Source of the DNA: a virus
Taxonomy: Duplodnaviria; Caudoviricetes
IMG/VR virus record: IMGVR_UViG_3300036398_002854
Coordinates: 1-55,507 of that record
DNA: 55,507 nucleotides
Direction: 5' to 3' (one strand)
Below, piece after piece: positions 21,972-36,363 of this stretch. The first letter of the stretch is position 1; every line of letters starts with the position of its first letter. The translations under genes were made by a program, and so were the position numbers. Under the pieces are notes generated by a model. The model saw only the letters and a list, made by a program, of their open reading frames with translations, did not search any database and was not told the origin of the DNA.

Positions 21972-22676
21972 TTAATCCCACGCTAGGATGAAATCATCAA
22001 CAACGCGGTTTACAGGCTTCGCACCCCAAGAAATAAGCAAATCTACCGCGTCATATTGTCCCCACTCAAAACCATCCCAAGGCTTCTGCTCAATGCAGAT
22101 GATCGGCTTGAACTTGCGGATTGTTTCTTCCGCACCCTTGATGACCTGATACTCATAGCCTTCTACGTCAATCTTGAGCGCGTCTAGGCAATCAAGATTT
22201 TCGCTATCAAGGGTGATGACTTCGACCGGGTAATGCTCCGCTTCGCTCGCCCACTTCGCCTTGTCAGAAGACGCAACCCGCGTTCCCGATGTGGTGTCGG
22301 GCTTATATTCGATGATGACCTCTCCCTTCTCAGCGCCAACTGCATAGGGGCGCAGTTCCACGTTCTTGGTGGGGCGAGAAGGATGATTGATGGTGTTCAG
22401 CATAAAGCACTTCTGATTGACCTTGATCGGTTCATAGCCAACCACGCGGTCAAACGCCTTGCTGAAGTGCAGGGACCAAAGCCCGACATTCGCCCCCACG
22501 TCCGCCACCAATCGTCGTCGGTTTGGCGGGACGGAATTCACAAAAGCGGCGAGGGTATGAAGCTGGTAACTTCCTTCACCCGTTGCGCTTTTGCGTGCGG
22601 ATTGGTTGAGGAAAGGCAGCAGGTGTTCTTCGGTGCTGGGAATCCAAACACCGGCAACAAATTTGATATCTGACAT
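21972..22676 (-). CDS. FkbM-family SAM methyltransferase
   Basis: DVGANVGLWS, YEP, LKIDVEGYE..VIKGA. Confidence 0.88.
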   Translation of the reverse strand: MSDIKFVAGVWIPSTEEHLLPFLNQSARKSATGEGSYQLHTLAAFVNSVPPNRRRLVADVGANVGLWSLHFSKAFDRVVGYEPIKVNQKCFMLNTINHPSRPTKNVELRPYAVGAEKGEVIIEYKPDTTSGTRVASSDKAKWASEAEHYPVEVITLDSENLDCLDALKIDVEGYEYQVIKGAEETIRKFKPIICIEQKPWDGFEWGQYDAVDLLISWGAKPVNRVVDDFILAWD

Positions 22677-25542: not shown

Positions 25543-26079
25543 TTAGGTGCGGGGCCAATAGATGATCGTTGGCCCTCGGTCAATATGGGTCTGATTCCAT
25601 ACGTGCCAGACGTAATTGTGGATGGGCTGGGCCTTTCTTTCCTCCGACCACCAAGGGCGAAACCGCATCCTGATTTGGCGCGTATAAAGCGGAGAATCAA
25701 AGAACCGCGCCCGTGACGACGCCAAATCCCAATTTGCCCGCATCAAAAAACAGGCGCCATAGACCTTTCTCGATTGGATATGCTTGATGGCCGTTTCAAC
25801 AAATCGGTCCACAATCTTGCGGTCATACGGGGGATTGGTGACGATCCAGTTTGTGTGTCCTATATCCGCGAAGGCGTCCTGCATACCGTAAAGAAACTTG
25901 AAATCCTTCTCTGCGAAACGGCGCAGAATACCACTACCGTTCGGGGCACAAATATCCGTAATCCCGTCGCACAAGCTAATGGACTCTACAAGCGCGTCCA
26001 CACATCGAGGGTCGATGGTCTGATAATCGTCATTCTCTTTGCGTGCGTATCCGCTATGCACGTAGGGCACTTTAGTCAT
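25543..26079 (-). CDS. Small amino-methyltransferase-like protein (probable DNA adenine MTase)
   Basis: DDYQT, DICAPNGSGI, IVTNPPY. Confidence 0.6.
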   Translation of the reverse strand: MTKVPYVHSGYARKENDDYQTIDPRCVDALVESISLCDGITDICAPNGSGILRRFAEKDFKFLYGMQDAFADIGHTNWIVTNPPYDRKIVDRFVETAIKHIQSRKVYGACFLMRANWDLASSRARFFDSPLYTRQIRMRFRPWWSEERKAQPIHNYVWHVWNQTHIDRGPTIIYWPRT

Positions 26080-26665
26080 TGTATGCTATTTCCCTTATGA
26101 TCTTACGACGTATCGCTAAAGCAAAGTCATCCCAGCCTTCCGAGATAACCGCAAAGCCATCTTCGGTTATGGTGTGGTCACGCAAGAAGGCTTCGATTTC
26201 AGCATTGAGGCCAACGCCAATCGCGTTCACCGTGATTTGGGCTTTCTGCGCCCTATCGCGTGCTTCCTGCGTCGGGATTTTGCTGGCGATACCGTCCGTG
26301 GATATGTCGATAACCTTGCGCTCAGGCGCACATGGCGCCGTGGCGAAGTGGCTAGAAGCCGTATCCAACGCCACGCCAATCTCCGTGGCGATTTGAACCC
26401 GGCGAGGCACGTTCTTGATTTTGGCGGACAGGCTATCCGCCTGTTCGGTTGATTTGACCGTGTGCCACGGCACCACGACTTCTGCCTTGCCCCCAAACGC
26501 CAAAACCTTGACAGCGATGCCGCCATCAAGGTTTTCAATCGTGCGTTGTATGGCGGGGTGGCTGAACGCCTCAGCCGTGCCGTCGCGCTGCTTTACCCAT
26601 TCAGCATCGCTGACGCTGGCGCTTACGTCCATAAGCAGAACAAGCGCGACGGCACAACCGAGCAT
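26072..26665 (-). CDS. DUF1194 (vWA-like) protein
   Basis: ALVLLMDVSASV, RKVIDISTDG, ITVNAI, AIRRKIIREIA. Confidence 0.8.
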   Translation of the reverse strand: MLGCAVALVLLMDVSASVSDAEWVKQRDGTAEAFSHPAIQRTIENLDGGIAVKVLAFGGKAEVVVPWHTVKSTEQADSLSAKIKNVPRRVQIATEIGVALDTASSHFATAPCAPERKVIDISTDGIASKIPTQEARDRAQKAQITVNAIGVGLNAEIEAFLRDHTITEDGFAVISEGWDDFALAIRRKIIREIAYND

Positions 26666-26670
26666 AGTGG

Positions 26671-26922
26671 TTAATACATCCCAAGCGCCTTGAGGTAGGT
26701 GTCGCGGATAAGTTCACGCTCCTCGCGTTCCGCAGCATCTTCCGCGCGCATCTTGATGATTTCGCGGATAACCTTGGGGTTGAAGCCCGCGCCCTTGGCT
26801 TCCGCCATAATATCCGAGATGGCGGACTGGATTTCCTTCTTCTCGGTATTGAGGTTTTCGATACGCTCAATGATCGAAAGCAGACGATCAGAGGCGATGG
26901 AGTTGTGGCCGATGTCGCTCAT
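26671..26922 (-). CDS. gapR: GapR / DUF2312 DNA-binding protein
   Basis: DRLLSIIERIENL..EKKEI...DIMAEAKGAGFNPKVIREII..R...YLKALGM. Confidence 0.85.
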   Translation of the reverse strand: MSDIGHNSIASDRLLSIIERIENLNTEKKEIQSAISDIMAEAKGAGFNPKVIREIIKMRAEDAAEREERELIRDTYLKALGMY

Positions 26923-26927
26923 TGTTC

Positions 26928-27344
26928 TTAGTCCTCGTGCTTGACGGTTTCAGCGAATACTTCTAGTGTTGCGGTTCTTGACTTGATTGCCTCAAAGATT
27001 TTTGGCGCACGAGTTGGCAATTCAGCCAATCCTGTGCCGAGCCCATCATGCGGGACTACAACTGTTCTTCCCGCCTTTAGCCATGCAAGCGCAATCATAA
27101 ATGGAAAGCGGATAGCATCTTCGACAAACTCCCAATCTTCGTCCTTAAAATACGAACTCGTTTGCGAGTCGGGTGCCCACTTTGTAGGCACGCCGAAGCT
27201 GTTGGGGTGGCCGCGCATGGTTGCAGCCTGACCACCGTAACCTTGGCGGCGCATGTTGTCACCAAAGAGAAAAATTGTGTGGGGGAAACCTTCGAGCACA
27301 TCTTGCTTGGAGATGAACTTCTTGTAGACGAGTGTTCCGGGCAT
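26928..27344 (-). CDS. Conserved phage protein (macro-like fold possible)
   Basis: FLFGDN...GGQAA.MRG.PN.FGVPTK...GLGTGLAELP. Confidence 0.6.
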   Translation of the reverse strand: MPGTLVYKKFISKQDVLEGFPHTIFLFGDNMRRQGYGGQAATMRGHPNSFGVPTKWAPDSQTSSYFKDEDWEFVEDAIRFPFMIALAWLKAGRTVVVPHDGLGTGLAELPTRAPKIFEAIKSRTATLEVFAETVKHED

Positions 27345-27345
27345 T

Positions 27346-28941
27346 TTACTTCCTATACCTTTTGCCTGACCAACCTTCTGCCTTTACTGGCAGCCCCGCC
27401 GCCCATTCGGGCGTGGCCGCTACCAACGCTTCATACTCTGCCACGTCTCCGTAGCCCTCGTCAACCTCAGAAACGACTTCATCGTGAACTGTCAGCACGA
27501 CCGGATAATTGTGTCGCTCCAGTCGGAACATGGACTCCACCATCAGGTCGCGCGACACCGCCTGCACCACGTTCTCTGTGAACGTGCCTGGGCTGACCAC
27601 GGTGCGCTCCCACTTGCGCGTAAGGGCGTTCACCGCGCCAATCACAACGCCTTGCTTCGTCTCGCCCCAAGGCGTCTTGACCGCTTCGACCTTGGCCTTT
27701 GGGTAATTAAGCGCGCGGCCCGAGGGGAGAAGCAGGCGCAAATTGTCATCGCGCATCCTGAACTTCATGTTGCGAAGCGTGACAACCTTGGTGGGGTTGT
27801 TGATAGCCTTGATGGCTGCACGCTCCAAGGCATACCACAGTTTCGGGATGTGGTGGTAAGTTTCACGATACAAAGTAACGACGCGCTTGTATTCTTCTTC
27901 TTCCAAGAAGATTTGGTCCTTGGCGCAAGTCAATGCGAACTTTGGCGCACCCATGGCGTAGCCCAGGCCGAGTGTCGCTGCTTTCCCTAGCTGGCGGGCA
28001 CGTGGATCATTCTTTTTAGTGATCGGCCTGTTGTATATGATACTTGCAAAGTTACAGTAAATGTCATCCCCATTAGCAAACTGTCGCACCAAGTCATCTT
28101 GCCCTGCAATCCACGCCAGCACACGCGCCTCAATGGCTGCGAAGTCTGCTGCGTAAAGGATTTTTCCAGAGCCTGCTTGGATGAGGCTGCGAATCACATC
28201 AGCCACAACAGTCTGCACAGGGCCGTAGCACAACTCGATTTCGTCTATGTTGCCCCGTTGGATATATGGGATGGCGTCCTCTGGTTCTTTGAGCAATTCG
28301 GGGCGGGGCAGGTTTTGCAACTGCACGCCCTTGCCCGCGAAGCGGCCTGTAGATGCGCCATGGTAAAGCAGGTTGCCGTGGATGCGCCCTTCGGCATCCG
28401 CCATGTTCAGGATGGCTTGGAGTTTCTTGGTAGAGGACTTGGCGCCGATCTGGCGCAGATACAGGACTTCCCTGACTTCGGCGGGGAGGGTCTTGTCTTT
28501 AAGCGCGTTGGTGACGCCTTGCTTATCAAGGCTAGGGAAGTGGCAGCCTTTGGATGCGAACCACCGCACCAACTTATCGCGTTGGCTGAGTGACGTGACG
28601 AGGCCATTTGTGATTTGAACAAGGCGCGCATTGAGGCGGGACGCACCTTGCTCTACAAGCCCTAGCGCCAATCGTGCCGTCTCCAGGTCAACGCCAATGC
28701 CACGGTCGTTGATACGTTGGTCAAGCAGATAGACTTCCCGCTCAGAAGGTATGAGGGGGTAGAGTTTCTTTTCGGCTAGGCGTTCCGCCTCAACGTCGGT
28801 CTTGCAATACTCGTAGAGTTTGTTGAGGCGGTCGAAGTATATTTGGTTTTGGCGTTCGCGCGAGGCTTCGGTCTTACCAGTGATTTCATAGTCGTCCCAC
28901 CAGCGGATGTGACCGAAGTCGTCGTCATCTTCGTCGCTCAT
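27346..28941 (-). CDS. Family A DNA polymerase, C-terminal subunit (ExoIII + polymerase)
   Basis: YCKTDV, INDRG, TGRFAG...QNLPR, motif A DFAAIEARVLAW, motif B RQLGKAATLGLGY, motif C TVHDE; own GAGG RBS. Confidence 0.92.
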   Translation of the reverse strand: MSDEDDDDFGHIRWWDDYEITGKTEASRERQNQIYFDRLNKLYEYCKTDVEAERLAEKKLYPLIPSEREVYLLDQRINDRGIGVDLETARLALGLVEQGASRLNARLVQITNGLVTSLSQRDKLVRWFASKGCHFPSLDKQGVTNALKDKTLPAEVREVLYLRQIGAKSSTKKLQAILNMADAEGRIHGNLLYHGASTGRFAGKGVQLQNLPRPELLKEPEDAIPYIQRGNIDEIELCYGPVQTVVADVIRSLIQAGSGKILYAADFAAIEARVLAWIAGQDDLVRQFANGDDIYCNFASIIYNRPITKKNDPRARQLGKAATLGLGYAMGAPKFALTCAKDQIFLEEEEYKRVVTLYRETYHHIPKLWYALERAAIKAINNPTKVVTLRNMKFRMRDDNLRLLLPSGRALNYPKAKVEAVKTPWGETKQGVVIGAVNALTRKWERTVVSPGTFTENVVQAVSRDLMVESMFRLERHNYPVVLTVHDEVVSEVDEGYGDVAEYEALVAATPEWAAGLPVKAEGWSGKRYRK

Positions 28942-28947
28942 TGCGCC

Positions 28948-29646
28948 TCAATACATCGACCAAGGGCCTGCGTCAAACGCCTGCTTGATGCGTTCCTCCG
29001 CAATGGCGAAATACTTGTCGTCAAGTTCGATACCGATGAATTTGCGGCCAAGGTTCATTGCCGCAACGCCGGTTGTGCCGCTGCCCATAAAGCAGTCCAA
29101 GATAGCGCCGTTTGAGCCGTCGTCCGTATCACGAATCAAGGATTCGATAAGCCCAACTGGTTTGCATGTGGGGTGCCCGTGATCTTCAGATGGGCTTGGG
29201 CGTTTCGCTTCATACACACTCTTGGGTCGCCCATTTTTGAAAATGCGCCTCCCTTTCACCGCATACCATACAACATCGTGCATAGGGGCAAATGCCCCGC
29301 GCAAATCACCCATGCCGTGATGGAGTCGGTTCCAGATGACTTGCGACTTCAAAGTAAAGCCGCAATCTTCAATGTGGCGCCGCCAATCACAACTTGTCCT
29401 CCAATCGCAGAACGAAAGAAGGCCCCCCCCGTTATTTTTCAGGATACGGTATGCTTCCTTGATAAATCGGGGATCAATTTCGTCGTCACCTTTAATCTTT
29501 TCGTGTCTCGGCCCTGACTTGGACCAATTTGACTGGAACGCCATACCGTAAGGCGGATCGGTCAACACCATATCCACCGAACCATCCGGGATTTCCTTCA
29601 TGCGCTCAAGGCAGTCGCCCTTGAGCAACGTCAGCGCGTCCTTCAT
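28948..29646 (-). CDS. Beta-class N4C/N6A DNA methyltransferase inserted in the polymerase gene
   Basis: GDCLE, TDPPY, HPTCKP, LDCFMGSGTTG, IGIELD. Confidence 0.92.
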   Translation of the reverse strand: MKDALTLLKGDCLERMKEIPDGSVDMVLTDPPYGMAFQSNWSKSGPRHEKIKGDDEIDPRFIKEAYRILKNNGGGLLSFCDWRTSCDWRRHIEDCGFTLKSQVIWNRLHHGMGDLRGAFAPMHDVVWYAVKGRRIFKNGRPKSVYEAKRPSPSEDHGHPTCKPVGLIESLIRDTDDGSNGAILDCFMGSGTTGVAAMNLGRKFIGIELDDKYFAIAEERIKQAFDAGPWSMY

Positions 29647-30083
29647 ACCTTTTTCCCCTTCCTCGGCTTCGTCATCTTCAGCATATGCCGACTACCTTCC
29701 ATGTCCTTCTTGATTTCCAAGTCAAGCGCCTCACCAACGCCTTCCAGTGACCGTGGAACCGCCATGGCTGCGGCCATGGCTGCCGTGCAGAACCATTGCT
29801 CCAACGTCACAGGGGCGCAGCCGTAGCGCGGCACGGCGATGTTCTTGGTAATCAGGCGCTCGAATTGGGCATTGTGCGCGTAGATGGGATGGCCCTGCCT
29901 GATATGCTCGTTCAGTTCTTCAGGCCAGGGCAGATGTGGTGTCCACAGTTGCACAGGGTCATCATCCTTCGCATACGCCATGCAAAGAATGTCGGTGGTC
30001 GGGTGTTCGGCGTAGCGATACACGCCAACCAGTTTAAGGTTGGCGGTGGATTTGGTTTCGTAGTCTATGTGGTAGATGGGCAT
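29643..30083 (-). CDS. Family A DNA polymerase, N-terminal subunit (ExoI/ExoII)
   Basis: HIDYETKS, GVYRYAEHP, AHNAQFER, WFCT, PRSLE; ends KPRKGKKV. Confidence 0.88.
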   Translation of the reverse strand: MPIYHIDYETKSTANLKLVGVYRYAEHPTTDILCMAYAKDDDPVQLWTPHLPWPEELNEHIRQGHPIYAHNAQFERLITKNIAVPRYGCAPVTLEQWFCTAAMAAAMAVPRSLEGVGEALDLEIKKDMEGSRHMLKMTKPRKGKKV

Positions 30084-30124
30084 GGTGCAAAAAGAAGGCG
30101 GGTTGCCCCGCCTCCTTCTCTGCC

Positions 30125-30697
30125 TCAGAACAGGTCGGAAGCGTTGCCTTCACTGACGTTATCGCCGGGAACGTCATCGAAATCATTATCCGCGCTGCGA
30201 CCACCGCCGGTAGCGATGCGTTCGCCATCGTCAACGAACTGCACGTTGTTCAGGCCGAAGCTCACGCCCTTGTTGCCGCTGTTGTCATACGCGAAAGCGT
30301 TGATGCTCGCACGAACGAAGCAACCCGGATACAGGCGATCCTCGTCGGTGATGATCGGAAACTTGCCATCCACCTTCTTGCGGTCCACAACCTTTGGCTG
30401 CTTCTTGCTGCTGATGGTGATGAACACGCAATCATCATCGAAACCCGCCGTGCCTTCCTTGTCGGAGCCGGGGCGGAACGGGTTACGCATGTTCTTGGGC
30501 GGCTTGTCGCCAAACTTGGCCTTAGCGGCAGCACTCGCCGCCTTCTTCATGTTCTGGTATTCCGCAGTCTCCTGTGCGGCCTTGTCGAAAACAAGCACGC
30601 AGGAATACTTCGGGGTGTTGCCGTTGAAGCCGCGAGGCTCGAAAAGCGCCGGGAAAGCAAGTCGGGCCTTGGGGGTAACGACGTTGGTCTCGCTCAT
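30125..30697 (-). CDS. Single-stranded DNA-binding protein (DUF2815, T7 gp2.5-like)
   Basis: RLAFPALFEP, KYS, YPGC.VRAS, GNKGVSFGLNNVQ, acidic tail ending in F. Confidence 0.88.
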   Translation of the reverse strand: MSETNVVTPKARLAFPALFEPRGFNGNTPKYSCVLVFDKAAQETAEYQNMKKAASAAAKAKFGDKPPKNMRNPFRPGSDKEGTAGFDDDCVFITISSKKQPKVVDRKKVDGKFPIITDEDRLYPGCFVRASINAFAYDNSGNKGVSFGLNNVQFVDDGERIATGGGRSADNDFDDVPGDNVSEGNASDLF

Positions 30698-30789
30698 GTC
30701 ACATCCTAGGAGCCGGGTTAGCGTGCATTTTGCCCCTCATGTCGCACGCCATTGCCCAGCCACAGTGATTTCAAAAGAGGGGCAAAATC

Positions 30790-32010
30790 TCACTCGAAGT
30801 TGGTGAAGCCGTCAAGCGCGGGAACGGAGTCAAACTCATCCCCGATCTGCAACACAACCGCAGGCCGCTTATCGGAAAGCGGTGCGATGGTGTTGCCTGA
30901 CGATACTGCCACAACGGCTTCCGCCAGTCTATCCTTAATCGCCTTCTTCTTCCCAAGTTTTTCTTCGGCTTGGGCAGGCGAAATCAACTTGCGCGTGAAG
31001 ATATCGTCGTCCTCAAGCCCCATGGACGTGAGAAGGTCAATCGCATCTTCTTCGCTTTGCCACTTCCGGGTTGCCCGCTTGGCGACAAGTTTGTAGCCGG
31101 GGACGTGGCCCCCGTTCTCCAATTTGCGCTGCGCGTATGCCTGGACCGAGTTGATCCAGCCCTTGAACAAGTCAGCCTTGGCGAGAATGTCGCCAATCTG
31201 CGCTTCGCTCAGGCTTTCCGGTTCAGGCGGGAGGAAATTGTCGTCAAACTCCGCCTGAGCCAACGCCACAGCCTGCTCATGCAGTTTGGGGCACTTGGCC
31301 TGCGCAAGACAGAAACGACAATGGTCGCCCGGAGAAAGTGGAGCATCGGCTTCCTGTGTGCGGTGGGCTGCGGCAAGAAGGTCTTCCGCGAACTCGACGC
31401 GAAGCGAGTAGGCGTCAATCTCAAACTGCCTCACGTAGCCGTCAGGATGGCGGTAGCGGGGCTGCACGATGACCATGCGAACGCGAGTCGGGAAGATGTT
31501 GCGCTCCGCCTCCATCGCCAACATGGCGCCTAGGGCGTAGTAGGAAAGCTGCGGGGAGTTTTCCACCTTCACGGGCACGCCCGCACCATACTTCAAGTCC
31601 ATGACGGTCAGGCGCTTTTCGTCCTCATTCCAGATCACGGCATCCGCCGTGCCGAACATCGGGACAGGTGGGTTCAGGGCTTGAAGGTTGAACCGCTGCT
31701 CGATGAACAACGTGTTGCCTTCTGCCTCCTCCAACACCGCGTCAACGTAGACCTGAACCGCCTCGGCCATGTCCTCCGTGACTTCAAAGCCTTCAATCTC
31801 CTGCCCCAAGAAGGCTGTAGCCATCTTGTTCTTGCGGAGGCACATCTCCGCCAATTCATGCGCCGCCGTGCCCTCGCGCGCGTAGTCTGTGGATATGTTG
31901 GGCATACCCTCAGACAGACGCACAGAGCCAGGACAGGCGATCCACCGAGACGCCGAACTCGCGCCCAAGGAAGCATGGGCGCGGTTGGCATGTGTTGGCA
32001 GATTAGACAT
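30790..32010 (-). CDS. DUF2800 PD-(D/E)xK exonuclease (Cas4-like fold)
   Basis: HASLGASSASRWIACPGS, EGTAAH, FGTAD, DLKYG, QLSYYALG, CRFC...C. Confidence 0.85.
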   Translation of the reverse strand: MSNLPTHANRAHASLGASSASRWIACPGSVRLSEGMPNISTDYAREGTAAHELAEMCLRKNKMATAFLGQEIEGFEVTEDMAEAVQVYVDAVLEEAEGNTLFIEQRFNLQALNPPVPMFGTADAVIWNEDEKRLTVMDLKYGAGVPVKVENSPQLSYYALGAMLAMEAERNIFPTRVRMVIVQPRYRHPDGYVRQFEIDAYSLRVEFAEDLLAAAHRTQEADAPLSPGDHCRFCLAQAKCPKLHEQAVALAQAEFDDNFLPPEPESLSEAQIGDILAKADLFKGWINSVQAYAQRKLENGGHVPGYKLVAKRATRKWQSEEDAIDLLTSMGLEDDDIFTRKLISPAQAEEKLGKKKAIKDRLAEAVVAVSSGNTIAPLSDKRPAVVLQIGDEFDSVPALDGFTNFE

Positions 32011-32557
32011 TGACGATGGCCCGCGTGATAGCGCGATAGAACTTGGCGCACGCCTCGGCATCGAAGTCAGACACGCGGCCCTTCTGCGTCGTGGTCAGGA
32101 CTTCCTTGCGCGTTTCGTCAGGGCCAATCTCGGCCATGCGGGCAGACAGCAGGGCGCGGCAATGATTGCGGGCTTCCTCAAGGTTCTCCGCGAACCACGA
32201 ATCGGGATAGACCGGGAAAGCGCGCTCCTCCACATCGAACTTATCAGCGTGGTAAACATCCATCTCATCCGCCTCGATAGCGGTTTCCTCGTTATGGGCA
32301 ACAACCTCGGTGGTTGGCTCAGGCTCAGGGGTAGGCGTAATCTCAGGCGCAGGCCCTTCGGCTTTGCGCGGCCTACCACGCGGGCGCTTCTCGCCCGTAG
32401 AAGCAACAGTCTGCGCCGTGCTTGCCTCCGTGGCCGTCGCCACAATGACATCCGTGAAACTACCGCCGTCTAGCAGCTTGATCGCGTTTTCGGCTGTCAT
32501 TGCGATACCCGCAATCGCTGCTTCTGCGATTTGGGCGATGGCTTCGTTGCGGTCCAT
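32003..32557 (-). CDS. Hypothetical protein with AT-hook-like motif
   Basis: KRPRGRPRK; AGGAG RBS. Confidence 0.55.
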   Translation of the reverse strand: MDRNEAIAQIAEAAIAGIAMTAENAIKLLDGGSFTDVIVATATEASTAQTVASTGEKRPRGRPRKAEGPAPEITPTPEPEPTTEVVAHNEETAIEADEMDVYHADKFDVEERAFPVYPDSWFAENLEEARNHCRALLSARMAEIGPDETRKEVLTTTQKGRVSDFDAEACAKFYRAITRAIVNV

Positions 32558-33975: not shown

Positions 33976-34432
33976 GGCTCAATCCATAATACGCCAACAA
34001 CGCACTCTCCGCCCTGCCATCATCCTTGACGCGCTTGAACAACTCAGCGTTCTTAGGGAACAACGCCATCGCCTTCATGCGTGCGCCTCCCTTGTCGGCT
34101 GGTATGCTCATCTTGCGCTTCCATGTCGCGGGATGCACAAGGATGGTGGGGAAGTTAAGTGCAGCCAAAATACCTTCAATCTGTCCGAAGCCTCGCCCAA
34201 AAGAGAAAGCGCCTACAGCGCCTTCGCCCGGTCGCACTCCAACCTGTTCGAGAATGACCTTATCGGGGTTGCTGTTCTTGAGGATTTCGACAAGTAGCGC
34301 AGGAGGGATGCTCCTGCGCTTCTTGCCGTTCACCACGATCTCTACGGTTGGCATGTCCTCTACGATGAGACCGCCCGGAGTGATTGTGGCGATAGCGCCG
34401 CTAAGGCCAGGGTCGATACCAACGATGTTCAA
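33968..34432 (-). CDS. RuvC-like Holliday junction resolvase
   Basis: IVGIDPGLSGA, ILEQV, AFSFG, WK, DDGRAESALLA. Confidence 0.85.
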   Translation of the reverse strand: MNIVGIDPGLSGAIATITPGGLIVEDMPTVEIVVNGKKRRSIPPALLVEILKNSNPDKVILEQVGVRPGEGAVGAFSFGRGFGQIEGILAALNFPTILVHPATWKRKMSIPADKGGARMKAMALFPKNAELFKRVKDDGRAESALLAYYGLSHA

Positions 34433-36363
34433 AACGCATCACCCCAATCGCCCTTGGTTGCTGCCTTGCTGTATTCCGTGGCGCGGTTCTCGAAGAAGTT
34501 GGTATGCTCAGGCGCATTGAGCATGTCGTCAAGCCAAGGAATCGGATTGACCTTTACGCCATACAGCGGGCGAAGGTGCAACTGGAGAAGTCGCCTGTCC
34601 GCGATAAAGCGGATATACTGCTTGATTTCATCAGCCGTCATGCCCTTCACGGGGCCAAGGGCGAACGCCAAGTCAATGAACGCATCCTCGTGTTCCACGA
34701 TCATCTTGCAGATTTCGTAGATTTCTACCTGCAAGGCCGCGTCGAACAGTCCGGGGTTTTCCTCGCAATAGGTATGGAAAAGCCGAATGATGTTTTCGCA
34801 ATGAAGTGTCTCGTCGCGCACGCTCCACGCAATGATCTGCCCCATGCCCTTCATCTTGCCGAAGCGAGGGAAATTCAGAAGCATGGCGAAAGAGGCGAAA
34901 AGCTGAAGCCCCTCCGTAAATGCGCCAAACGCGGCAAGGGTTTTGGCGACTTCACGCGGATTATCGACTGAGAATTTGCTGAAGTAGTCATACTTGTCAC
35001 GCATTTCCTTGATCTGCATGAAAGTAATATACTCAGACTCAGGCATCCCAACCGTATCGAGTAGATGCGAATAGCTCGCAACATGGACCGTGTTGCCGGT
35101 AATTGCTACGCGCCCGTTTCGCCTAGACACGATGTTCTGATGCGGCACAGAAACGCAAAACACTTCGTCGTCATATTCTTCTTCAACGCGGTGCGGATAC
35201 GTTCGCCATACACGGTCGCAAATAGTGACAACCCAACAAGTCTTGGTATTCGTCGTAACTCTGCCAGTTGGCAAGTGCGATTCCCAGCCTGCTCCTCGGT
35301 TGACTCCAAGAGTCGCAGAGATTCCGGCCAGAACGCAAATAGCCTGGAACTTGTCTACCGCCCGACGCTCCGTGCTGTAGAACGCTCGAACGATGCCGCT
35401 TCGTGTGCCGTCCCAAAACAGAATTTCATCTACCAAAGCACGCGCCATAGCGGGCGTCATGTCTTCAAGTGAAAGGAAATCCAAAGTCTTCAGGCTCAGG
35501 ATCGCATCATTTCCTGGGAAAGTAAACGTATATCTACTCTGCCCACCTTCTTTCTCACGTTCGTTACACGAGATACCACTTTCCGTCAAAAGAGCAGAAA
35601 GCCTCTCTTTCTTACGGTCCTTCGTCAGACTAAAATCAATCGTGCGTGATGATGGGTTTACTGAAGGGCAGTTACCGCGCAAACAACCATCAGCGGCTAT
35701 CGCGATCTTGAGCGCAACCAAAGCAGGCACCCGTTCACCGTTGTGTTCTGACTTATTAACATTCGCCGCAGTTGGGAAAAGATAGTTTTGCCCCAGTTTG
35801 CGCTCATAGGAGCGCACCTTCTTCACGTTTCGAGAAGACGGGTGCTGGACAATCAGTTCGTGATTAGGTGTGACGCAAATATCCGCCGATTCACTTTTGT
35901 AGCGGTGCATTACACCCTGATACGGATACGCAACAACTCGATCAGGATGGACAAAGCTGATCGCCCCTGTTTGCAAGTCATACTGCGCGACCTTATCTTC
36001 TGTGGTTAGCGTGTCACACTTCTTCCACCCTTCCGAAGTGAGCAGTTCTGTGCTGCGGTCGAAGCACTCACTATCCGCAAACGAAGTCAGCATCATCACG
36101 ACTTCGGTCGGTTTGAAGATCGGCAGATAGTTGTGGACGTAGTTATCCGCTACGGACGCATCAGCCTGCGTGAAGAAGCGGAAAATCTGTGTCAGAAGGT
36201 TCTTCTCGCTTGGTGTCAGGTTCTTCTGCCAATCCTTCACGTCATCCGCGAGGGGGACTTCCTCTGGAAGCCAATGGATGCGCTGCTGCTGAAGCCAAGC
36301 GTCATACGCCCAAGGATAGCGAAACGGCTTGTAGCCAAGGGAGGGGGTGGAGAGATTGGTCAT
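34429..36363 (-). CDS. nrdB: Class I ribonucleotide reductase beta subunit, intein-containing
   Basis: YKPFRYPWAY, HWLPEEV, FRFFTQAD, E|TVH..SY, FTEGLQLF, RDETLH, NFFE. Confidence 0.95.
   Translation of the reverse strand: MTNLSTPSLGYKPFRYPWAYDAWLQQQRIHWLPEEVPLADDVKDWQKNLTPSEKNLLTQIFRFFTQADASVADNYVHNYLPIFKPTEVVMMLTSFADSECFDRSTELLTSEGWKKCDTLTTEDKVAQYDLQTGAISFVHPDRVVAYPYQGVMHRYKSESADICVTPNHELIVQHPSSRNVKKVRSYERKLGQNYLFPTAANVNKSEHNGERVPALVALKIAIAADGCLRGNCPSVNPSSRTIDFSLTKDRKKERLSALLTESGISCNEREKEGGQSRYTFTFPGNDAILSLKTLDFLSLEDMTPAMARALVDEILFWDGTRSGIVRAFYSTERRAVDKFQAICVLAGISATLGVNRGAGWESHLPTGRVTTNTKTCWVVTICDRVWRTYPHRVEEEYDDEVFCVSVPHQNIVSRRNGRVAITGNTVHVASYSHLLDTVGMPESEYITFMQIKEMRDKYDYFSKFSVDNPREVAKTLAAFGAFTEGLQLFASFAMLLNFPRFGKMKGMGQIIAWSVRDETLHCENIIRLFHTYCEENPGLFDAALQVEIYEICKMIVEHEDAFIDLAFALGPVKGMTADEIKQYIRFIADRRLLQLHLRPLYGVKVNPIPWLDDMLNAPEHTNFFENRATEYSKAATKGDWGDAF
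35092..36066 (-). mobile_element. Intein (325 aa) with LAGLIDADG-like endonuclease region
   Basis: Starts CFDRSTELLTSEGW, block B VTPNHE, ends VFCVSVP...RRNGRVAITGN followed by Thr; IAADG and LFWDG motifs. Confidence 0.92.

Follow-up and report, generated by a model that had tools for sequence, protein, structure and literature searches.

Evidence for a naturally split family-A DNA polymerase with optional methyltransferase cargo in a clade of uncultured phages

The stretch of DNA analyzed here, referred to throughout as the window, is the whole of IMG/VR virus record IMGVR_UViG_3300036398_002854 (Duplodnaviria; Caudoviricetes; 55,507 nucleotides), and its subject is a locus on the minus strand in which the two parts of a DNA polymerase, encoded by open reading frames (ORFs) of 146 and 531 amino acids (aa), flank a complete DNA methyltransferase gene. 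We consider it likely that an uncultured, siphovirus-like freshwater phage here encodes its family-A (Klenow-like) replicative polymerase in two cistrons, as a natural split that is independent of the methyltransferase. The methyltransferase is optional and dispensable as cargo, the split being present also where the gene is not: 12 of 17 split loci are empty at the junction, the closest relatives lack the gene, and both alleles occur in one sequencing run. An earlier reading of the window from its letters alone (the sequence-only reading) had described the polymerase gene as split by a methyltransferase. The 12 empty loci, the methyltransferase-free relatives L004 and L032 and the two alleles in one run do not bear out that description, and cargo that is optional need not have caused the split. 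The parts of the locus are as follows.

29643..30083, minus strand: polymerase N-fragment, 146 aa, ending KMTKPRKGKKV-TGA; most of the 3'-5' exonuclease domain
29643..29646, minus strand: ATGA, where the ATG that starts the methyltransferase overlaps the TGA that ends the N-fragment, reading GTATGA
28948..29646, minus strand: orphan beta-class N6-adenine/N4-cytosine DNA methyltransferase, 232 aa; PF01555, PHROG 67; DPPY ... FxGxG
28942..28949, minus strand: spacer GGCGCA, 6 bases; GAGG spans the stop of the methyltransferase and gives the C-fragment a Shine-Dalgarno-like site
27346..28941, minus strand: polymerase C-fragment, 531 aa, starting MSDEDDDDF and preceded by TGA-GGCGCA-ATG; ExoIII helix, thumb, palm and fingers

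The two halves and the position of the cut

Both outer ORFs fall in the same PHROG family (PHROG 17, DNA polymerase), the C-fragment at 1.7e-89 and the N-fragment at 2.4e-16. The C-fragment also matches PF00476 (DNA_pol_A) over residues 155-374 with 93.3 bits (cut-off 34.3), and has sequence matches to the Taq and Klenow chains at E 5e-12 to 6e-8. The N-fragment has no Pfam match and, searched alone against PDB sequences, no meaningful match; its profile gives a marginal match to exonuclease X, in the ExoII region only (E 0.12), and it aligns with the N-termini of unsplit polymerases up to the residues KPR.

Family-A polymerases carry catalytic motifs A (D...E), B (R...K...YG) and C (HDE), and the residues of a DEDDy exonuclease lie in ExoI (DxE), ExoII (Nx(2-3)(F/Y)(D/E)) and ExoIII (YxxxD); for both halves we took the Klenow names and definitions of these motifs to apply. 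ExoI (D7/E9) and ExoII (N71/F74/E75) are on the N-fragment and invariant in alignments of 16 (A1) and 39 (A3) sequences, with E75 standing where D is usual, an E that is invariant family-wide. On the C-fragment, ExoIII (Y45/D49), motif A (D266/E271), motif B (K320) and motif C (H486/D487) are invariant in a 39-sequence alignment (A2), in which R316 and E488 are at least 90% conserved. The DEDDy motif set is complete, but divided, with ExoI and ExoII on the N-fragment and ExoIII on the C-fragment, just as the sequence-only reading had placed them; the ORF list and the motif columns agree. Exonuclease and polymerase do not share one polypeptide in the window, where a stop codon and a 705-base insert lie between the two ORFs, and the two-chain family-A polymerase proposed in the same reading is upheld by the ORFs, the PF00476 and PHROG 17 matches and the motif positions.

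Ratios of nonsynonymous to synonymous substitution (dN/dS; Nei-Gojobori) were calculated for pairs with unsaturated dS only, split-versus-unsplit pairs included. They are 0.07-0.17 for the N-fragment and likewise 0.07-0.17 for the C-fragment in every unsaturated pair, and 0.02-0.14 for the ExoIII-bearing residues 14-100 of the C-fragment. Judged by these sequence comparisons, both polymerase halves are functional genes under purifying selection.

Relatives of the locus were drawn from three scans, of IMG/VR, of metagenome contigs and of one-genome-per-species contigs, with some contigs present in two collections (L013/L042). The scans gave 133 loci: 105 unsplit, with one open frame, 11 ending before a C-part match or without one, and 17 split. 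Sixteen of the split loci fetched form the clade of the window (L004-L011, L021 and L031-L037; N-fragment identity 72-99%), and the seventeenth, L061, is a distant singleton outside it; the 17 split loci of all cargo counts given here are the 16 clade contigs and the window itself. A protein search limited to 80-256 aa found 16 stand-alone N-fragment clusters (112-153 aa, 70-98% identity), while among longer proteins no unsplit one exceeded 73% identity, the nearest being P0021 and P0022 (71%) and the L039 type. Best matches in cultured phages are at most 47% identical, and the six inspected by annotation or locus, of 1478 matching records, are all unsplit. As far as these searches reach, the split is fixed, and kept by selection, in a clade of uncultured phages.

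Some further short or divided forms may be independent splits at the same loop. In L061 (4001-6068), IPRKGVPSDA-stop closes the N part and MPDFCMDEDLL opens the C part, the two overlapping by 8 bases (ATG...TGA) in that loop. This single contig is distantly related (43% identity), and the forms nearest to it, at 57-61% identity, are unsplit. It has the look of a separate splitting event, and could be a sequencing error. Two short representatives, P0190 (155 aa) and P0212 (147 aa), may each owe their length to a real stop, a contig end or a sequencing error.

The position of the cut was located on a structure model of the closest unsplit relative, L039, made from a 33-sequence alignment; L039 is 71% identical to the window in the N part and 57% in the C part, and the window's own chains were not the ones modelled. 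The model scores well (predicted local distance difference test 93.9, predicted template-modelling (TM) score 0.91) and has a Klenow-like fold, with exonuclease domain, thumb, palm and fingers; in Foldseek it matches both phage G20c Pol I (E 3e-20) and Klenow 1d8y (TM 0.62/0.68) along its full length. Around the cut it consists of a helix (128-137), a coil (138-141, which includes KPR), a hairpin (142-149, AIDEDGVR), a second coil (150-160) and a long helix (161-195) that bears ExoIII (Y181, D185). The break is thus predicted to lie in a surface coil after KPR, between helix 128-137 and the small hairpin; mapping to coil 138-141 agrees with the expectation, from the sequence-only reading, of a break in a loop. 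In terms of this fold, the N-fragment would be the sheet-and-helix core of the exonuclease domain, and from the C-fragment would come the hairpin, the helix with ExoIII and all that follows. Proofreading would then require both chains, with the ExoI/II core on one and the ExoIII helix on the other. We propose that the 146-aa chain contributes a beta-sheet core with ExoI and ExoII, that the 531-aa chain contributes the ExoIII helix and the whole polymerase domain, and that the two may reassemble non-covalently into one enzyme with a composite proofreading site.

The two new termini are oppositely charged, and the sequence-only reading took them to be new sequence, possibly a basic/acidic clasp. 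The same loop in unsplit homologues is often basic and then acidic (for example KPRKPTKNDP...DDPEDF), as in KPRKPKKDEDPNG and IPRKPKKDEDPNG of Rhizobium phage RHph_N65, RPRAMDDDGEPVWW of L047, KPRAIDEDGVRWW of L039 and KPRAVDEDGVRWW of P0021, and in the closest unsplit relatives it reads KPRA(I/V)DEDGVRWW. Among 88 distinct unsplit linkers, 60 have a net positive charge over the 7 residues that follow the conserved Pro (14 of them +3 or more), 55 have a net negative charge over the remainder, and 35 have both. Only about 5 residues of the N-fragment end and about 13 of the C-fragment end are without counterpart in unsplit proteins. From these alignments, the charged ends are best described as an intensified form of an inherited loop pattern, and mostly not as new sequence. 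What survives of the novelty claim is the degree: the split clade is at the extreme, with D/E runs of 4-6 where runs of 4 or more occur in 2 of the 88 unsplit linkers, and with an N-tail charge of +3 or +4 (counted from the R of KPR). Its tails are more charged than almost all unsplit linkers, which counts against the two-cistron account in so far as pure inheritance of the loop leaves this excess unexplained.

It is possible, if rather unlikely, that these ends are an evolved electrostatic clasp or interaction module that holds or orients the chains, an idea compatible with a two-cistron polymerase. Every N-tail examined is net positive after KPR (16 stand-alone clusters, and loci at +3/+4), all C-heads carry the D/E run that is so rare in unsplit linkers, and the tails formed at the split of NrdA in phage Aeh1 are, according to the accessible part of that report, essential for activity (PMC3045599). 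The idea is weakened by the pre-existence of the basic-then-acidic pattern in cis in 35 of 88 unsplit linkers, leaving a clasp possible on the strength of the intensified charge. Past KPRK(G), moreover, the N-tail has no constant sequence and is anywhere between 3 and 10 residues long (KGKKE, KGQKVTQ, KGKAPANATRDS, KIIRVSNP and others), which speaks against a specific interface. The tail codons AAG CCG AGG AAG GGG AAA AAG also form a purine-rich, Shine-Dalgarno-like region before the next start codon, and selection at the RNA level could keep them purine-rich, offering a rival account of tail conservation. Derivation of the basic tail as a frameshifted acidic linker (the -1 frame reads DDEAEE...) was considered and rejected. 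Up to and including KPRK, the N frame has its homologue in unsplit proteins, and the acidic reading is therefore only a by-product of the purine-rich codons.

Junction cargo and the order of events

The content of the junction varies among the 17 split loci: it is empty in 12, holds a methyltransferase in four (the window, L009, L011 and L031) and another ORF in one (L037), so that the methyltransferase is absent from 13. Empty junctions in the window's larger subgroup read GCGTGAGC or GCGTGATA, with a TGA stop, a GTG start and the C part in frame -1, and in L035 and L036 they read TTGTCTGA, with a TTG start and the C part in frame +1. The GTATGA junction of the window recurs in L009, L011 and L031. 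The closest relatives, L004 and L032 (96-99% amino acid identity; C-fragment 96%), have an empty gap, and the N-fragment of L031 is 99% identical to that of the window, yet a different methyltransferase fills its gap. Separately, the junction of L037 (867-1184) holds a 105-aa ORF that starts MTFEDEEDW, overlaps the N-fragment stop and has no Pfam match.

Contigs from other public runs were compared with window positions 28700-30100, and one freshwater run (X8) contains both alleles. Its methyltransferase-bearing contigs have depths of 5.6-15.8, and joints from 28940 to 29649 or 29653, which leave out 708 or 712 bases and have 6 or 10 other letters in their place, have depths of 5.5 and 30.9. 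On the gene strand these joints read AAG TCA GCG TGA GCG AC, that is, KKSA-stop overlapping the GTG start of the C-fragment, which is the sequence of the methyltransferase-free contig L004.

The completeness of the methyltransferase, its ATGA overlap on one side and the 6 nucleotides with GAGG on the other were correctly described in the sequence-only reading, as the letters themselves and a full-length match to PF01555 (N6_N4_Mtase; 114 bits, profile 1-221 of 221) attest. In beta-class enzymes the DPPY motif precedes the FxGxG S-adenosylmethionine motif, and here TDPPYG is found towards the N-terminus, FMGSGTTG towards the C-terminus. The nearest solved structures include CcrM (6pbd) and DpnA (5hek), and methyltransferases of cultured phages are at most 48% identical to that of the window. 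There is no paired restriction endonuclease, both neighbours of the gene being polymerase halves, and the enzyme is for this reason classed as an orphan. The four methyltransferases are mosaic: the first ~100 bases (through DPPY) and the 3' block (from FxGxG) have 92-98% nucleotide identity, and the middles are 5-55% identical. Between subgroups the 5' end is 98% identical, against 58-88% for the flanking polymerase DNA, a contrast that points to recent exchange of the methyltransferases. Their role is probably anti-restriction self-methylation, with specificities that would differ between variants.

In most members of the clade the first stop overlaps the GTG or TTG start of the second cistron, an arrangement that would fit termination-reinitiation coupling. 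In the window, the methyltransferase would be threaded into this coupling chain, through ATGA on one side and then GAGG and 4 nucleotides before the next ATG, and so would be expressed with the replication genes. The sequence-only reading had proposed such translational coupling; the geometry of the junctions (ATGA overlap, GAGG spacing) is compatible with it, and the coupling itself is what we infer from that geometry. The junction may then be viewed as a slot for accessory genes that is empty or holds one of several mosaic orphan methyltransferases or a small ORF, its cargo perhaps swapped through homologous recombination in which the polymerase halves and the methyltransferase ends, both conserved, would serve as homology arms.

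The order of events was addressed with trees of the C part, initially a quick tree and then an LG+G4 tree of 23 rows, without the near-duplicates L007, L008, L021, L032 and L033 and without several distant rows. They contain three strongly supported groups, namely the window's subgroup, L035-L037, and the unsplit L039/P0021-P0023, which form a trichotomy inside a clade with 100% support. Because both split subgroups have the KGKKV(V) tail and the (M)SD... head, and the unsplit group has neither, a single origin of the split is favoured; one origin followed by re-fusion, or two origins, would be the alternatives. Methyltransferases occur only in the window's subgroup, where they are scattered among near-identical polymerases, and on account of this scatter the methyltransferase was probably gained, lost or exchanged recently in a split that already existed. 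Three points weigh against such an order. Monophyly of the split loci is recovered in just 58% of bootstrap trees, in the trichotomy with the unsplit L039/P0021 group. The KGKKV tail of methyltransferase-bearing loci is nearer to the KGKKVV of the other subgroup than to the KGKKSA and KGQKVA of empty junctions in its own subgroup, a likeness that would fit an older cargo-bearing state. Finally, the direction of change may have been either methyltransferase gain or methyltransferase loss.

These points bring in the converse order, in which a methyltransferase cassette was inserted into an intact polymerase gene and created the split, with empty junctions as later deletions that kept two cistrons. 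We find this doubtful, although it accounts for several details. Deleting exactly 705 bases of the window, beginning with the methyltransferase ATG and stopping just short of the C-fragment ATG, would leave GTATGAGCGAC, a working overlap that resembles GCGTGAGCGAC of L004; 8 of 10 bases are shared between ATGAAGGACG at the methyltransferase start and ATGAGCGACG at that of the C-fragment; the likeness of KGKKV to KGKKVV would be expected; and mobE splitting nrdA in phage Aeh1, as described in the available text of PMC3045599, is a precedent. Against it stand the 12 empty loci among 17 and the L035-L037 subgroup, which is without any methyltransferase and has a different frame relation. The scattered methyltransferases, too, look like recent gain, loss or exchange and not like an ancient founding event, and targeted insertion by a methyltransferase has no known means.

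Reassembly, splicing and the reality of the arrangement

A polymerase whose halves never reassemble would leave the C-fragment as an exonuclease-deficient polymerase and the N-fragment as a decaying or independently acting remnant. Exonuclease-deficient family-A polymerases do exist, Taq being one, but this reading is improbable for the window: the dN/dS of the N-fragment is as low as that of the C-fragment (0.07-0.17), ExoI and ExoII on the one chain and ExoIII Y45/D49 on the other stay invariant, the first ~60 residues of the C part, including the ExoIII helix, sit structurally in the exonuclease domain of the unsplit model, and the two cistrons are adjacent and overlapping in all 17 loci.

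Still harder to sustain is the restoration of one full-length polymerase through a programmed frameshift or through splicing of RNA or protein. In empty-junction relatives the C frame does stay open over the 48-200 bases that precede the stop, and a G-AAA-AAG stretch lies near the N-fragment stop of the window, as restoration might require; however, the 699-base methyltransferase ORF with its own stop separates the halves in the window, and the two subgroups differ in frame offset (-1 against +1). As a site of programmed frameshifting the stretch was rejected, G-AAA-AAG (window, L031) not being kept in L004, L005, L009 and L011; its counterpart is CAA AAA in L005 and L009, and AAG AAG in L004. 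No Rfam intron family, group I or group II, is found in window 27000-31000 at E up to 1, and the methyltransferase ORF takes up 699 of the 705 inserted bases; together these exclude an intron, as the sequence-only reading had concluded. Its further observation that intein motifs are missing from the split polymerase also stands, the motif-B region reading GKAATLGLGY without insert. For a split intein there is no room for the halves in the ~5 and ~13 residues that lack an unsplit counterpart. A homing endonuclease in the gap was likewise rejected, the gap ORFs being methyltransferases or the 105-aa ORF of L037 without Pfam match.

An insert of another kind is present in five close relatives. 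Inteins are recognized as in-frame inserts that start with Cys or Ser and end with His-Asn before Cys, Ser or Thr. L006-L008, L011 and L031 have an in-frame insert of ~280-288 aa in motif B, GKA|CIAEG...LIVHN|CILGLGY (in L006, 6404-7267), at the site that corresponds to C-fragment residue 322/323 of the window (~27975). Searched alone, the insert has no Pfam match; judged by its ends, it looks like an intein.

That the split arrangement is an assembly artefact or a pseudogene is scarcely credible: the window is a metagenome-derived virus record of linear class with an estimated completeness of 56%, but independent contigs from other runs and studies give the same two junctions, the same split is found in 16 related contigs, and purifying selection acts on both halves. 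Contigs of two lake-water runs, X2 and X3, which belong to other studies, span both junctions with zero differences (100% identity), and a wastewater run (X9) has a single 3818-base contig over 28703-30100 with 27 differences. The possibility of misassembly, raised with the sequence-only reading, is met by these contigs, which reproduce both junctions; the arrangement is no assembly artefact.

The gene content of the 55.5 kb record is siphovirus-like, with tail and connector genes, a replication module and ribonucleotide reductase (RNR) genes. The replication module comprises an SNF2 helicase, a DUF2800 nuclease and an Enc34/gp2.5-like single-stranded-DNA-binding protein (SSB), and its features next to the polymerase are the following.

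30089..30120, minus strand: terminator-like hairpin of 14 bp with a following run of T, in the gap that separates the SSB gene from the start codon of the N-fragment, by fold energy and its presence in relatives
30125..30697, minus strand: Enc34/gp2.5-like ssDNA-binding protein, upstream replication module (Pfam, PHROGs)
30790..32061, minus strand: DUF2800 PD-(D/E)XK nuclease, upstream replication module (Pfam, PHROGs)

The hairpin ends 6 bases upstream of the N-fragment ATG, and the 70-nucleotide stretch that holds it has a fold energy of -30 kcal/mol. L005, L009 and L034 retain it with stems that differ in sequence, and it is not found in L035, L036 and L039. Beside it, the N-fragment start has no Shine-Dalgarno sequence at normal spacing.

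Elsewhere in the window, on the minus strand, a 178-aa ORF at 25543-26079 contains NPPY and belongs to PHROG 799 (DNA methyltransferase) with no Pfam match, and 21972-22676 encodes a 234-aa FkbM-type methyltransferase (PF05050). A 644-aa RNR small-subunit ORF at 34432-36363 (minus strand) has two separated PF00268 stretches and a weak Intein_splicing match at residues 118-413; on these matches the RNR gene of the window probably contains an intein. Just downstream of the polymerase, at 26071-26922 (minus strand), are genes for a GapR-like DNA-binding protein (PF10073) and a DUF1194/VWA protein. GapR-like and DUF1194/VWA families are typical of Alphaproteobacteria, and such neighbours may hint at the host.

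Split polymerases in other phages and the meaning of the junction

Split phage polymerases are already known; new here are a cut inside the DEDDy active site of a family-A enzyme, a methyltransferase as cargo, and polymorphism of that cargo. In the literature searched, which was that of one library, we found no description of a methyltransferase inside a split PolA.

For the split of gene 43 in T4-related phages, PMC2988022 cites Petrov et al., 2010, in the Journal of Molecular Biology. This family-B polymerase (PolB) gene is split into 43A and 43B, with an untranslated spacer between them in 44RR and a seg-like homing endonuclease gene in phage 25, according to the available portion of PMC2988022. 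As in the clade of the window, an essential polymerase lies in two cistrons whose gap is empty in one phage and holds a mobile gene in another, and the question raised there, as far as that portion goes, is the same, namely whether the inserted gene invaded an already split gene (PMC2988022). The differences are the polymerase family, the homing endonuclease cargo and the position of the cut.

The LUZ24-like Pseudomonas phages (Bruynoghevirus) encode PolA as an exonuclease subunit or part I (gp25, 169 aa) and a part II (gp34), as annotated in NC_010325 and described in the accessible text of PMC3890496. Here too PolA, that of a cultured phage, is divided among genes that unrelated ORFs keep apart, and its pieces are similar in size to those of the window, the N-terminal one small and the polymerase one large. 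The first piece of LUZ24, however, holds all three Exo motifs (DLEGDG, HNILDYD, YCLQDG), and the cut falls between the exonuclease and polymerase domains, whereas in the window it falls inside the exonuclease active site. Eight ORFs occupy the LUZ24 gap, none a methyltransferase, and BLASTP detects no similarity between the LUZ24 polymerase and the window's family. In LUZ24 (L139, 5000-7306) part II itself stops within the region of motif B, and next come an endonuclease VII gene and a 93-aa ORF annotated 'DNA polymerase'; this second cut near motif B is close to the site of the intein-like insert in relatives of the window.

In Aeromonas phage Aeh1, nrdA is split by mobE, and the products reassemble without RNA or protein splicing, the tails being proposed interaction domains in the part of the report at hand (PMC3045599). 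The likeness is of an essential enzyme fragmented at a functionally critical region, and on that account Aeh1 offers a direct precedent for the clasp idea; it differs in being a ribonucleotide reductase, in the homing endonuclease, and in its tails, which are described in the same text as unique and arisen on insertion, where the charges of the window's family pre-exist in unsplit homologues. PhiKZ, a chimallivirus, also encodes its polymerase as two proteins, DNAP-N and DNAP-C of a split PolB, for which the available text of PMC13648687 gives experimental demonstration of a stable 1:1 complex. PhiKZ differs in polymerase family (B), in phage group and in genes that are not adjacent around a cargo slot. 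PolA split into two genes is reported for uncultured marine cyanophages and for the OM43 phages MEP401 and MEP402, the latter two with a small ORF inserted between the PolA parts, in the accessible portions of PMC10580990 and 10.1101/325100; these are T7-like polymerase lineages, and the same portions describe neither methyltransferase cargo nor population-level polymorphism.

Why the split is kept is a more tentative matter. One possibility, which we offer with reserve, is that it is no tolerated accident and serves as a protected docking site in an essential, highly conserved gene, enabling anti-restriction methyltransferases that differ in specificity, or other cargo, to be shuffled by recombination among co-infecting relatives. 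If so, the polymerase halves would act as universal homology arms, the overlapping stop and start codons would guarantee expression of the cargo, and the composite proofreading site would be the price of methyltransferase shuffling at the level of the population.

The clade in any case offers a natural test case of a DEDDy exonuclease site that would be made from two chains, under strong purifying selection throughout. The junction is a live polymorphism, with more than one allele in a single sample, in which anti-defence genes can be seen to lodge in an essential gene and to be exchanged between phages, and it bears on the question posed by gene 43 of T4-like phages, of whether inserted genes cause such splits or colonize existing ones.

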